64,000 bases of DNA from Octopus vulgaris (Eukaryota): assembly GCA_951406725.2 (NCBI GenBank), contig OX597826.1:66464001-66528000 (forward strand), read 5' to 3'. Shown piece by piece: positions 5,600 through 61,491 of this stretch. Each line of letters begins with the position of its first letter. Within the stretch, counting starts at the first letter, position 1. The position numbers were made by a program, and so were the translations under genes. The notes below the pieces were generated by a model, which was not told the origin of the DNA, searched no databases, and saw nothing but the letters and a program-made list of their open reading frames with translations.

Positions 5600-6015
5600 A
5601 CAAAAGCTCGGGCAGGCAGTGAGCGACATTTCTTCTGACTTTGTGTTCTGAGCTCAAATGCCGCCGGTATCAAGATTGCCTTTTATCTTTTTAGGGGTCA
5701 ATAAAATAAGGACCAGAAGAACACGGATCAATGTAATCAACTGAGACACTTCTCCCAAAATTCCAAGCCCTGTGCCAAAGTTTAAAATTAATATTTATTA
5801 CGAAAACTAAGGCGGCGGTGAGTAGGCGGAATCTTAACCACGCCGGACAAAATGCTTCAGAGAATTTCTTCCGACTTTGCTTTCATTATTTTCGGGGTCA
5901 ATAAAATGAGTACCGATTGCAACACTGGGGCCGATGCAATCGACTTATCGCCCTCCGCCCCGAAAATTACTGGGCTTGGGGTTAGGGTTAGGGTTAAACT
6001 TAAAGCTATTATTTA
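5600..6015 (+). mobile_element. Two tandem SINE A copies; the second contains a short TTAGGG run
   Basis: Family A motifs; GGGGTTAGGGTTAGGGTTAA at ~5978-5997. Confidence 0.7.
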
Positions 6016-16248: not shown

Positions 16249-17075
16249 TTGAAAGACTCTCGGATAGTTCTTAAATACCGGTTATTCTTTACTCGAAAGC
16301 AGGCAACAAGAAATCACCAAAGGTTCCAAGGAGTGCTTTCTCCTGTGACTCTAAGAGATAATGCTCTCCTCAGAATGCGTGCTGTACCCAAAAATGCTGT
16401 TTTCTGGATCATCTCGAGCCTGATAGACGCTCCAATATTCTTAATATGTCTTTCAAAGCCCTTGGAAACTGCTCCTAATGGTCCAGTTACATCGGGTATC
16501 ACCATTACTTTCCTCATGCCCCATAACCTTATTATCTTGTCCCCCAGTGGCTGGTATTTCTCAGTCTTTTCTGTTTCGTTACATTTCACCCTCGATCGCC
16601 TGATATTGCAATATCTATTGCCTTTACTTCTTTTCCCTCTTTTATGTATGATCACGTTATCAGGTCGTCTCGTCCCAATCACTTGGTCGCACTGCATGTT
16701 AAAATCCCAGAGTATTTTGTAATGTTCGTTTTCCATTACTCCCTCTGGCTTGTGTTCATACCATTGTTCAGCTCTCTCGAGGTTTGCTTTATCACACAAC
16801 AGATAGTGGGCATATCTGGCCATATTGTCGTGTCTCCTTTTATATTCGCGTTGTGCGAGTTTATATTACTCACTAACAATATGGCTTATACTTTCTCCCT
16901 TCTCAGAGCACATCCTACACTATGGCGAGTCAGTGTTTTTATCAATGTGATATTTGGAGTAGTTTGTTCTGAGAGCTTGTTCTTGAGCACTGCACACTGC
17001 GCTCTTTTATGTCTCCTTTCTGTAGTAATTGCCAGGTTTTTTTTCCAACCATTCTCACCTTTATTCTTCAAGAAC
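16248..17075 (-). mobile_element. R4/Dong-clade LINE 3' fragment (zinc knuckle + restriction-like endonuclease)
   Basis: ORF 16314-16823 with WYEHKPEGVMEN, KILWDFNMQCD, RRPD, EKTEKY and LGTARILRRAL. Upstream CRMCSEKGESISHIVSEC. Ends in (TAA)n. Confidence 0.85.
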
Positions 17076-20932: not shown

Positions 20933-21130
20933 CAGTTCTATACTTAAGAGATGAGGAATTATGTACATTATTTACATTCGACGGATATTTGTCTTCATCT
21001 TATTTGTTGTTAACACAACGTTTCGGCTGATATATCCTCCAGCTTTCATCAGGTGTCTCGGGGAAATTTCGAACCTGGGTTCTCATTCCGAAGGTATTTT
21101 TTTTCGATGTTGTTATTATTATTATTATTA

Positions 21131-27979: not shown

Positions 27980-28185
27980 CACCGCGTGTGTACCGTTGGC
28001 GATTTTTTCCCGCCGTCTTCCCCTCTCTGGATCTTTCCTTTTCCTATGTTTCTGACGAAGAGCTCCGCTCGAAACGTAAAACCTTCCTTCTTCCCTTCCT
28101 TCCTGAGCGTCCAATAATACTACATTTGTTTCACGTCCTCGCGTTGTTGTGTTTTCTCTTGGTGTTTTCATGTTCGGATTAACTA
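27980..28185 (+). mobile_element. Family D short HHR-bearing element (~200-270 bp, Penelope pLTR/retrozyme-like) nested in SINE B
   Basis: Closely similar copies at 38470-38685 (+), 55635-55900 (+) and 57032-57250 (-). All run into (TA)n, mostly after GGATTAAC. No coding capacity. Confidence 0.7.
28048..28082 (+). ncRNA. Minimal type I hammerhead ribozyme motif (family D, copy 1)
   Basis: GTTT-CTGACGA-A-GAGC-tcc-GCTC-GAAA-CG-TA-AAAC. Stems I and II pair perfectly, core canonical, palindromic ACGT. Confidence 0.75.
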
Positions 28186-36590: not shown

Positions 36591-36921
36591 AGTATAGTGG
36601 CCTATATTGCTGTGCTCATCTGAATTCTAGTTAATATATTACATAAATATACATGCATGCATACATACATACATACATACATACATAAATATACATATAA
36701 ATATGTAACTGATGTCCCCCCCTCCCCCCAAAAAGAAAAGAATACAGGAGTGGCTGTGTGGTTAGAAGCTTGCTTACCAACCACATGGTTCCGGGTTCAG
36801 TTTCACTGCGTGGGACTTTGGATAAGTATTTTATACTATACTCTCAGGCCGACCAAAGCCTTGTAAGTGAATTTGGTAGACGGAAACTGAAAGAAGCTCA
36901 TCGTACATATATATATATATA

Positions 36922-37266
36922 TATAAAATATTATTAGAGACAAAACCACTATTTTGCAAAACAAACAAGGAAAGACTTAATCAATACATAAAATTTTAAT
37001 AAATAGTCAAAATAATTTGTAACTGACTTGTAAATTGGAAGTCCACCTGAAGATTGTCGATCAAGACAAGAAACGATTGTAGTGGCGGTTTTTTTGACTA
37101 TTTATTAAAATTTTATGTATTGATTAAGTCTTTCCTTGTTTGTTTTGCAAAATAGTGGTTTTGTCTCTAATAATATTTTATAATATTTTACTATAAAATT
37201 GGATTTAATCCTAAATCTGATTTTTTTTCCCTGTAAATTTGGATTTATTCCCTAATATTTATTATT

Positions 37267-37268
<2 letters not shown>
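36922..37268 (+). mobile_element. Fold-back HHR element inserted in the internal (TA)n of SINE B
   Basis: 36922-37011 is the reverse complement of 37092-37181; HHR in the spacer. AT-rich tail related to 52577-52650 (-). Confidence 0.7.
37043..37085 (+). ncRNA. Type I hammerhead ribozyme motif with complete core, in the loop of an ~89-bp inverted repeat
   Basis: CCAC-CTGAAGA-TTGTC-gatcaa-GACAA-GAAA-C-gatt-G-TA-GTGG. Stem I CCAC/GTGG, stem II 5 bp, core intact, predicted cleavage after GUA at 37081. Confidence 0.8.
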
Positions 37269-37343
<75 letters not shown>

Positions 37344-38348
37344 TGTTTGTATGTATGTATGTATGTATGTATGTATGTATGTATTTGTGTGTCTATGTTT
37401 GTCCCCACCACCATCACCGATATTGTTAACGTCCCCGTAACTTAGCGGTTCGGAAAAAGAGACGGATAAAACAAGTACTGGGCTTACAAAAGAATAAGTC
37501 CCAGGCTCTATTTGTTCGACAAAAGGCGGTGCTCCAGCATGGCCGCAGTCAACTGACTGAAACATGAAACAAGTAAAAGAATAAAAGAATAATAGAACAT
37601 ACATATACTGTATGTTCTATTATTCTTATTTATATTATACTGGGGGTGAGAGCAGCAGAGAATATTTATAATTATACTGGGGATGAGGGCAGCAGAGAAA
37701 CCCCCAAAAGGTTTTTCGCCTCATCCTGTATTACGTTTACAGAAACCTATGTAGTTGTTATATAGAGTTAACTATGCTAACAACCATAAGAAAATTGTGT
37801 TCTTTCACTTTATCTGCACCAAGTTTTGTGTTGTCTCTTACTCGTAGCAACTAGCATCTTTTTCCTCTTTTACGTACCTTAACCATGATATATTATAGTT
37901 TTAAAAATTTGGTCGAAACGAGGCTTAGCAAAAGTAATATCTGGAAAATTAAGTTGGGACATAAACCTGACGGTTGAACGAATTATCTTTACATAAATTA
38001 GAGATAGAGGGGAAAAAAAATAATGAGTGTAGGGAAAGAATGTTAAGATGGGAATGAAAAAAAAATCGATAAAGAAGAAAATGAAGAGATATAAAGAAAT
38101 CTGCTGCTCTTTACTGTATCATAAATATCGTAAGAGATGCAATAAGATTTACGTATAAGGAATATATATATATTTGCTAGAGAGGGTGCGTGAAAGAAAA
38201 ATGACGATAAAGAATGCAGAAGATATTGCGGTTATAAACCTGAACGGAAGCAAGGAGAGAAGAGAAAGAGGGAGAGAAACTAGTGTTGGAAGTAGAGGGA
38301 ACTGCAAGCAGAGATAAAGAGTGTTTATGGGAGAGAGGTGCTAAATGC

Positions 38349-38469: not shown

Positions 38470-38685
38470 TTCAACATGTGACCTCGTGAGCACCGCCAGC
38501 AATTTTTTTTCCTCTGTCTTCCCTTCTTGAGATCTTTCATTCTCCTTTGTTTCCGACGAAGAGCTCCGATCGAAACGTTAAACCCTCCTTCTTCCCTTCT
38601 TTCCTGAGCGCCCAATAATACTTTATTTGTTCCACGTCCTCGCGTTGCTGTGTTTTTTTTGTGTTTTCATGTTTGGATTAACTAT
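38470..38685 (+). mobile_element. Family D HHR-bearing element
   Basis: Aligns by eye with 27980-28185. Preceded by a truncated tRNA-like head (38420-38468) and bounded by (TA)n. Confidence 0.7.
38549..38583 (+). ncRNA. Hammerhead motif variant (family D, copy 2)
   Basis: GTTT-CCGACGA-A-GAGCtccGATC-GAAACGTT-AAAC. U4C core change and one stem II mismatch. Confidence 0.55.
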
Positions 38686-56069: not shown

Positions 56070-56257
56070 TATACATTATTTACATTATTTAGATTTGACA
56101 GATATTTAACCTCATCTTGTTTGTTGTTAACACAAAGTTTCGGCTGATCTATCCTCCAGCCTTCATCAGGTGTCTTGGGGAAATTTTTGAACCTGGGTTC
56201 TCATTACTAAGGTATTTTTCGATGTTATTATTATTATCATTATTATTATTATCATTA

Positions 56258-59730: not shown

Positions 59731-60480
59731 TTAACTTATAACTTAGAAAGGTTTTGGCCAGTATTGGCCCAGGCCATGTCTAACTTAATAGCACCACCTG
59801 GCGAAGTCTTTCAGTTCAGGATTTGGGCACCAAGGCCCATTCGAGCAGAGAGTTATTGTTTGCGGAGACATATCCGGGTGTGGGTGGTTTGTCCGGTACT
59901 GTTTGAAGGAATTTGTCCAAAGACTTCTTGAATTTTGTGTGGTCAGTTTCTTTTTTGACGTGCCCTGGTGTAATGTTGAAGAGAGCAGGTCCAATTGAGG
60001 TGAAATAGTTGTGCCGTATTGTCGTTATGTGATGCGATTTAGATTTTTGTTGTGGACGGATGGCACGTGGTCCAAGCCTTGGATGCATTTTGAAGGTGAT
60101 GCCAACATCATTCGGACAGTGCTGGTGGAATATTTTCCACATCATACAGATAATGTAGCGTTCACGGCGTCGTTGGAGTGAATACAATTTCAGCTTCTCT
60201 AGTCTACCCCAGTAGTCAAGGTCTGACATGCCATCTATCTTTTTTGTGATTGACCTTTGGGGAGCTTCAATTCTCATAATATTTTGTTTTGTGTAGGGAG
60301 ACCACAGTGGACAGCAGTATTCAAGGTGGGGTCGGGCAAAAGTGGAGAAGAGAAGGATAATAGCGTGGGAATCTCTCGACTGGAAGGTTCTGAGAATCCA
60401 GGAACACATTCTGCGGGCCATGTCAACTTTGCTGCTTATATGTGTAGCCCAGCTTATGTTGTTGTCCACTGTTACTCCCA
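59730..60480 (-). mobile_element. CR1-group LINE 5'-truncated copy with uninterrupted RT C-terminus
   Basis: ORF 59816-60547 with RPHLEYCCPLWSPY and DYWGRLEKLKLYSLQRRRER. 3' UTR with a TAAGT-repeat tail; sits in (TA)n. Confidence 0.88.
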
Positions 60481-61491
60481 TATATATACGTATGTATATA
60501 TATATACATACGTATATATGTATACGTACATAAACATACGCACACATTCATACACACACACATATGTATACTAAAAAATATCAAAGAAAATGTAATTCCT
60601 GCGTCCTGTACAATTATAACGTTATTATAACAATTATATTGTAATTGTTTGTGTTATGATGACATGTAAGAATTATTGAAACAATTGTAGGAAGTGAATA
60701 TTTGAAATATCAACTGATATTGTTTGTTATTTTTTGATGCACACACACACTTACACTATCCCTCTCTCTCTCTCTCACATACAGATGCATATGTACGTGT
60801 GTGTGTGTGTTTTTATGTGTGAGAGTGTTTCAAAAATCCCCGCACGCCATCCTACGCTCTCGTCATTTATTCCTTTTGCCCATCGTCTTTTTTCCTCTCC
60901 TCTCTTCTTATTTTTTTCTCTTTCCGATTTTTCTTACGAGAACCAAAAACCCATCTTCAATATCACTTCTCTCTATTGCGCACTTCTAATGGCCTGGCCT
61001 TAACCTTCATCGCATCGCCCCTCTTAAGAGTCCCGTGACCAAGAGACTCACTGCCTGTTTCCATGTGTATGTCTACGAGCGCGTAAATGCAATTCTGTGT
61101 TGATGAACCTTGCTTCTTTCCGCACGTTTCCATTACTCTCTTTTCCTCTTCTTTCAAGCCTAAGTTAACGGTTAGTTTGTTGTGCATATGTGTGATGTGC
61201 CTGAGCATGTGTGTGTTGCGTGTCTCTGAATATGTGCACCTGCTAACCTTTATCGCCCTCATTATGTGCAGTTTTTCCTCCTTCTGAAGAGATCCCGGTC
61301 AAAATCCGGCATGTGAGTTCAACCAATCATGTGTCCTTATCACATGATTGGTTGTCTTATGCATCCAGGATCTAGTGTTTTCCGGTGAGAGAAAGGAGCA
61401 ATGCGGTGGAGAAACTTTGCAGTGACAGCTGACTGGCTCAGCCGTAATAAACAATACATACACATACGCATGCACGCATATATAAATCATA

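Follow-up and report, generated by a model that had tools for sequence, protein, structure and literature searches.

The hairpin at 36922-37268 of the window, the 64-kb stretch of Octopus vulgaris DNA analysed here, is with a probability of roughly 0.7 a head-to-head copy, without intron or ORF, of a Penelope-like element (PLE) of the Hydra clade, limited to the element's 5′ end, for which both cut ends of a (TA)n target were primed on one spliced, uncleaved sense RNA. Direct observations are the family identity, the absence of the GT-AG intron, a pair of fixed 3′ ends, inner ends that vary and a splice form matched in both arms. The hairpin is ordinary PLE debris; the functional story attached to it in the initial annotation is without support.

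The inverted repeat consists of two arms of 94 nt each (36922-37015 and 37089-37182) with 99% complementarity. The sole mismatch, at 37013, leaves a perfect stem of 91 bp (36922-37012 / 37092-37182), described earlier as a near-perfect repeat of ~89 bp. Its fold has a z of -22, and none of 100 shuffles was equally stable. A complete hammerhead of the minimal type I lies in the loop on the + strand (37043-37085), as read from the sequence. Stem I is formed by CCAC (37043-46) and GUGG (37082-85), the 5-bp stem II by UUGUC (37054-58) and GACAA (37065-69). The core segments are CUGAAGA (37047-53) and GAAA (37070-73). Stem III comprises 2 bp capped by a GAUU loop and is self-complementary, a dimer-type feature. 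The cleavage triplet GUA ends at 37081, with a predicted cut after A37081. The core CUGANGA / GAAA / NUH, stems I-III and the palindromic stem III are all present. The base of stem II is U10.1-A11.1 in place of G10.1-C11.1, a pair termed highly conserved in PLE hammerheads (PMC4209133); the initial annotation had correctly recognized both the complete core and this U-A pair. No other motif in the window satisfies the core-plus-stems filter. Rfam gave no hammerhead match at E<=10 over 36900-37270, and of its 274 matches to the whole window, the 150 listed were nearly all microsatellite-driven miRNA. The hammerhead is accordingly identified by its motif and by its conservation in the family rather than by a covariance model. 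Four hammerhead-core-like motifs at 21011-21052 (-), 56128-56169 (-), 28052-28086 (+) and 38553-38590 (+) belong to two other repeat families. They fail the stem I filter, and the core of the last is altered. ORF fragments at 16314-16865 (-) and 59816-60547 (-) resemble, by eye, the ends of non-LTR retrotransposons. No host exon is evident among window ORFs of at least 130 aa.

The PLE copy interrupts a host repeat that is SINE-like and made of two parts, and lies in the microsatellite inside it. The head of this repeat lies at 36745..36903 (+) and its 3′ part at 37399..37590 (+). A 3′ part follows less than 600 nt downstream of 38 out of 75 heads, mostly after a gap of 60-130 nt; the gap is 496 nt here. 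Remnants of the (TA)n target flank the copy on the left (36907..36925) and on the right (37270..37328), and a target-site duplication is indiscernible within the (TA)n. Throughout the family, 223 of 229 arm ends abut (TA)4+. The inverted short arm (36922..37012, -) begins at a fixed end, T2 (equivalent to 37182), and is truncated in a U7 run immediately 3′ of the ribozyme. The + arm comprises an exon 1 remnant lacking its first 5 nt (37012..37033) and, from 37034 to 37270, exon 2 of the pLTR and 5′ UTR up to a second fixed end, T1. The ~85 nt between T1 and T2 (37183..37270, +) are carried by this arm only and constitute a tail. A 13-bp hairpin is predicted at 37195-37224; the fold of the tail is not beyond chance (z = -1.3). 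In the contig cover of the unique left flank, no empty-site allele was seen. That cover is absent or at trace level in two putative RNA runs and present in two others, consists of contigs only and is silent on transcription and editing.

The two exons are contiguous in the window at 37033/37034, a junction absent from the initial annotation. Positions 37013-37033 correspond to 5878-5898 of the family locus L148 at 20 of 21 nt, where L148 continues with GTATGT. Positions 37034-37266 match L148 7711-7942 at 99.6%, immediately after TTTTAG. The exons are 1.8 kb apart in L148, separated by a GT-AG intron (GTATGT...TTTTAG). The + arm, being devoid of this intron, therefore came from a spliced sense RNA. 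The main donor, GTAAGT, lies 4 nt upstream of the minor donor GTATGT that is used by the window copy. Counted genome-wide by exact match, junctions of the main donor number 328, those of the minor donor 34 and unspliced ones 307. The A of ACTTC is the exact stop of 19 among 113 spliced arms; 2 extend past it. The initiator consensus is YYANWYY. Since ACTTC lies in TCACTTC, which fits this consensus, its A is likely the transcription start, judging from DNA ends alone. An extra G before ACTTC could derive equally from a cap or from partner-arm sequence. None of 21 loci with an ORF start has a spliced upstream exon, and the downstream pLTRs seen at such loci are unspliced (9 of 9). ORF-bearing copies thus retain the intron, whereas the window copy and the other copies behind the 362 counted spliced junctions do not. 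It thus appears that short copies without start-site context are all that spliced RNA gives rise to, the long copies stemming from unspliced RNA. The window copy has neither start site nor intron, and is for this reason a probable dead end.

The repeat is young. The 32-nt ribozyme core has 978 exact copies genome-wide and a 29-nt arm word 3,041, both with a count of 0 for the reversed control. The best 40 of 1,379 candidates are 97-100% identical, in line with the recent insertion suggested earlier; older subfamilies show 87-92% identity. Long copies were reached via divergent ribozyme pairs 1-15 kb apart. In these, an ORF for a reverse transcriptase (RT) and a GIY-YIG endonuclease follows the pLTR directly, starting ~50 nt past the point at which the window copy ends. 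It is intact (837-840 aa) at 5 of the 21 ORF-start loci. The protein contains YRDD, VVY...YIG, DKT and KWK motifs, a CxCx5C linker and, at the C terminus, a GIY-YIG domain, with CxxC and CxH flanking the E/N of the endonuclease. Pfam searches with three ORF fragments gave neither RT nor GIY-YIG matches and nothing relevant. Forty homologues were found, many with PF26215, and the named ones come from Argonauta and Octopus. Residues ~500-600 of the ORF protein P0041 form an Asn-rich insert between RT and endonuclease; N-rich inserts have been described in rotifer Penelope elements (PMC3846280).

Two features of endonuclease-bearing PLEs (EN+) are found, namely a single linked ORF with RT and C-terminal GIY-YIG endonuclease, and a pLTR with a type I hammerhead, a tandem or inverted arrangement and a one-sided tail. 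Inverted truncated copies, tails, (TA)n targets and hammerheads are known PLE traits (PMC8557442), and the inverted partial copy next to the pLTR that the initial annotation ascribed to Penelope is borne out. By its motifs the parent element is placed in the Hydra clade: DKT, the CxCx5C linker, CxxC/CxH and the (TA)n target are present and CCHH is absent. The clade, including Hydra-1_Obim, shares the single RT and GIY-YIG ORF (motifs compared by eye), the (TA)n target, the pLTR hammerhead, the inverted 5′-truncated copy and the one-sided tail (Craig et al., 2021, PMC8557442). The hammerhead of Hydra-1_oBim likewise has a non-G-C (A-U) base of stem II, but Hydra-1_Obim is, judged by eye, a different family. 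The present PLE differs from the clade as described there in reading KWK instead of RWK, in a unit of ~6 kb instead of <3 kb, in the Asn-rich insert, in the 1.8-kb 5′ UTR intron and in a tail of ~85 nt instead of 30-40 (PMC8557442). Penelope of Drosophila virilis is similar in its start site within the pLTR, its short first exon, an intron in the 5′ UTR whose end directly precedes the hammerhead and flanking inverted copies of variable size (PMC2377424; PMC4209133). Its intron measures 75 bp and is described as retained in transposed copies, whereas spliced junctions (362) outnumber unspliced ones (307) here.

Head-to-head pairs of this PLE were found 111 times. Four duplicate loci and three pairs below 84% identity were dropped, leaving 104. 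In 95 of these, T2 (the position matching 37182) closes one arm and T1 (near 37268) the other; nine deviate. How far the arms extend inward differs, from tens of bases to >4 kb; a comparison of arm lengths had been proposed in the initial annotation. Among 71 short pairs, the further 5′ reach belongs to one arm in 11 and to the other in 12. Solo spliced arms end at T2 in 10 cases and at T1 in 9, and no inverted element lies upstream of them, although in short loci a partner >1.5 kb away could escape.

The fixed ends fit in vitro results on an Anolis PLE, Poseidon, in which two internal start sites bound the tail, both target strands are extended and uncleaved RNA can serve as template, likewise at an AT-rich target (PMC11167929). 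Poseidon belongs to a different clade, and its start sites are located inside the ORF instead of upstream of it. The origin of both arms from one RNA is not raised in the available part of that report (PMC11167929).

Splice forms provide a marker for this origin. They are informative in 52 of the 104 pairs, a sample enriched for window-like and minor-donor arms, and agree in 51: 21 pairs with the main donor, 14 with the downstream donor and 16 unspliced. One pair is mixed, and no pair combines a spliced with an unspliced arm (0/52). Young minor-donor arms have a minor-donor partner in 11 of 12 cases against a background of 9% (p ~6e-11). A common G/A variant agrees across the arms in 63 of 63 pairs, and over 124 positions arms differ by 1.1 within insertions and 3.7 between them (0 of 2000 permutations). 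Several haplotypes are common to the two donor forms, so the match of splice forms is not merely an effect of the source locus. As the arms share their splice form, they point to a single sense RNA, on which both cut ends of the target were likely primed. Palindromes tend to lose their centre, and their arms can undergo mutual conversion. Such processes could mimic both the asymmetry and the concordance.

Head-to-head PLE copies have been read as products of antisense self-priming, which would also explain intron retention, with unspliced sense RNA left open (Arkhipova et al., 2013, PMC3846280). The significance of intron retention has been called unknown (Craig et al., 2021, PMC8557442). Sense-spliced arms argue against the antisense model for the present family, and its fold-back in that form is incompatible with the 362 sense-spliced junctions. 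A modified version, in which a single cDNA is primed once on sense RNA, folds back and copies itself while deletions of the centre vary the arms, is improbable but the most serious competitor. It would account for the concordance of the arms and for the small hairpins at many junctions. The fixed T2 end and the solo T2 arms flush with (TA)n remain unexplained by it unless deletions are added each time. Added deletions are also needed for L076, L116 and L161, where the tail arm never reaches the sequence held by its partner. A single fold-back is likewise a poor fit to the further 5′ reach of either arm and to the solo spliced arms at both T2 and T1.

It is quite unlikely that two RNAs of the same active locus templated the arms and that gene conversion homogenized them later. 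L205 (G000:C13:8324000-8325700) is the sole pair that differs in splice form and exon-1 variant. Its arms derive from two source variants, so two RNAs can template one insertion, and a few source loci could account for shared SNPs. The minor-donor partnering and the lack of spliced/unspliced pairs speak against this reading, and arms of one insertion still carry up to 8 private changes, contrary to homogenization.

In the preferred course, overlapping priming of both target ends on one RNA, transcription would set out from the A of the pLTR's ACTTC, and the intron would be removed. The GIY-YIG endonuclease would cut (TA)n. Reverse transcription would then start internally at two sites ~85 nt apart, 37182 and ~37268. 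Two cDNAs would copy the overlapping 5′ RNA, halt at the RNA start or before it, and be fused by microhomology. In the window copy, the short cDNA would have halted just before the ribozyme and left it in the loop.

For PLE insertion as a whole, it is reasonably probable that a dimeric enzyme extends both cut ends from two fixed internal sites on one sense RNA, an overlapping twin priming which would generate head-to-head repeats with a one-sided tail. Spliced mRNA would be used as often as unspliced RNA but give only short, promoter-less palindromes. Intron retention would then reflect the survival of unspliced copies and not an antisense template, and hundreds of splice-marked palindromes in the genome would record the process. 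One-RNA sense priming thereby suggests a reason why active PLEs retain their intron. In L1 twin priming, two primers on one RNA yield an inverted 5′ segment joined by microhomology, and each cDNA copies a largely different portion of the RNA. The cDNAs of the present PLE would begin at set positions and cover nearly the same stretch, which would result in a palindrome. The literature search, with the 2003-2006 work of Arkhipova and Evgen'ev outside its range, found no report of spliced or intronless PLE copies or of twin priming in PLEs, and the novelty of both is provisional.

The interest of the family lies in its alternative splice donors, which label individual RNA molecules. That the template was sense is shown by the spliced arms, and the agreement between arms suggests that each insertion drew on one RNA, so that the origin of PLE inverted repeats and of intron retention becomes directly testable. 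Since intact ORFs exist, this is feasible in the published in vitro system.

The initial annotation regarded the ribozyme as displayed in the loop of the hairpin, with cleavage possibly feeding ADAR editing or siRNA production. A functional RNA of this kind is very improbable. In an unbiased set of 44 T1/T2 insertions, derived from the first 100 arm matches on contig C1, 21 carry an entire ribozyme in each arm, 15 in a single arm and 8 in none. Both-arm ribozymes would be buried in the duplex. The partner stops short of the ribozyme, as in the window, in ~10 of the 15 one-arm cases (~10/44), and the loop position is not favoured. A hotspot for short-arm stops at the ribozyme foot, indicated by 12 of 33 stops at exon-2 positions 56-61 in the sample, was rejected genome-wide, where window-type junctions number 9 versus 7 at a control junction. 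Its position in the loop of the window copy is due to the early stop of the short arm, likely a chance by-product of truncation. Of the 33 truncations, 5 fall within the 39 nt of the ribozyme and 28 within the 47 nt downstream. They are thus rarer inside it, as would be expected if templates had been cleaved, or simply from microhomology in AT-rich sequence.

A read-through transcript would indeed give a 91-bp duplex, and PLE copies in rotifers produce small RNAs (PMC3846280). The many near-perfect palindromes in the genome may be a source of dsRNA where a host gene reads through. The window copy itself lacks a start site. Its ribozyme core is conserved across subfamilies and in all 172 motifs compared; the base pair of stem II is U-A in 146, A-U in 16, U.U in 7 and other in 3, and stem III is self-complementary in both common forms. 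The A-U/U-A swap counts as one compensatory event and is suggestive of selection in the parent element, not at the locus. The active monomer fold has a predicted share below 0.01% in the window hairpin (0.008%), of 0.16% in 37035-37095 and of nil in the full palindrome. Two ribozyme copies are predicted to pair via stem III, with a self-duplex of -5.8 kcal/mol. Cleavage of the monomer at the locus is accordingly predicted by these folds to be poor. Among PLE hammerheads of the minimal kind, monomers failed to cleave and dimers did so at a low level (PMC4209133), and cleavage of the Anolis ribozyme is protein-dependent (PMC11167929). The + arm spans the cut site, which means that its template RNA was uncleaved. 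Copies starting at the cut site are L067, L165, L221 and four independent solo insertions, the latter compared with 3 uninspected places at a control position; two further matches that are point variants and one duplicate are excluded from this count. One two-armed start at the cut site could also be a 3-nt deletion. In the giant squid, 235 hammerhead loci have been listed (PMC6962438).

The reading as a MITE, with terminal inverted repeats of fixed extent around a random spacer, suggested by the short, high-copy, non-coding sequence with inverted ends, is refuted by arms of tens of bases to >4 kb with a tail on only one of them, by spliced junctions and by the same sequence directly upstream of an RT ORF; fixed terminal repeats with a target-site duplication were not found.

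Non-LTR retrozymes resemble the window copy as short non-coding pLTR-related sequences with a type I hammerhead (PMC7229834; bioRxiv 10.64898/2026.07.22.740005). They form head-to-tail tandems with a ribozyme per unit, of which at least two are required, whereas the window holds a single head-to-head copy with one unit. At L002 (G000:C5:64451438-64452076), three same-strand hammerhead units are spaced 107 nt apart, each preceded by a small exon 1 fold-back. These tandem units are retrozyme-like, and dimeric ribozymes could form there. L145 (G000:C9:50396493-50399180) is a head-to-head array of a 250-nt unit with 3 + 8 ATG-bearing copies. The unit spans exon 2 into the first ~18 codons and is without a ribozyme, and the array may have arisen by successive jumps between templates or from a template that was circular. 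L017 and L029 (G000:C14:74.54 Mb and 73.81 Mb) are one insertion, duplicated, whose arms have trapped ~190 nt of foreign sequence between them. L061 (1004-4484) and L070 contain, in the region of the 5′ UTR intron, a tandemly duplicated stretch of ~1.74 kb, variable in copy number, which recurs in both arms of one insertion.
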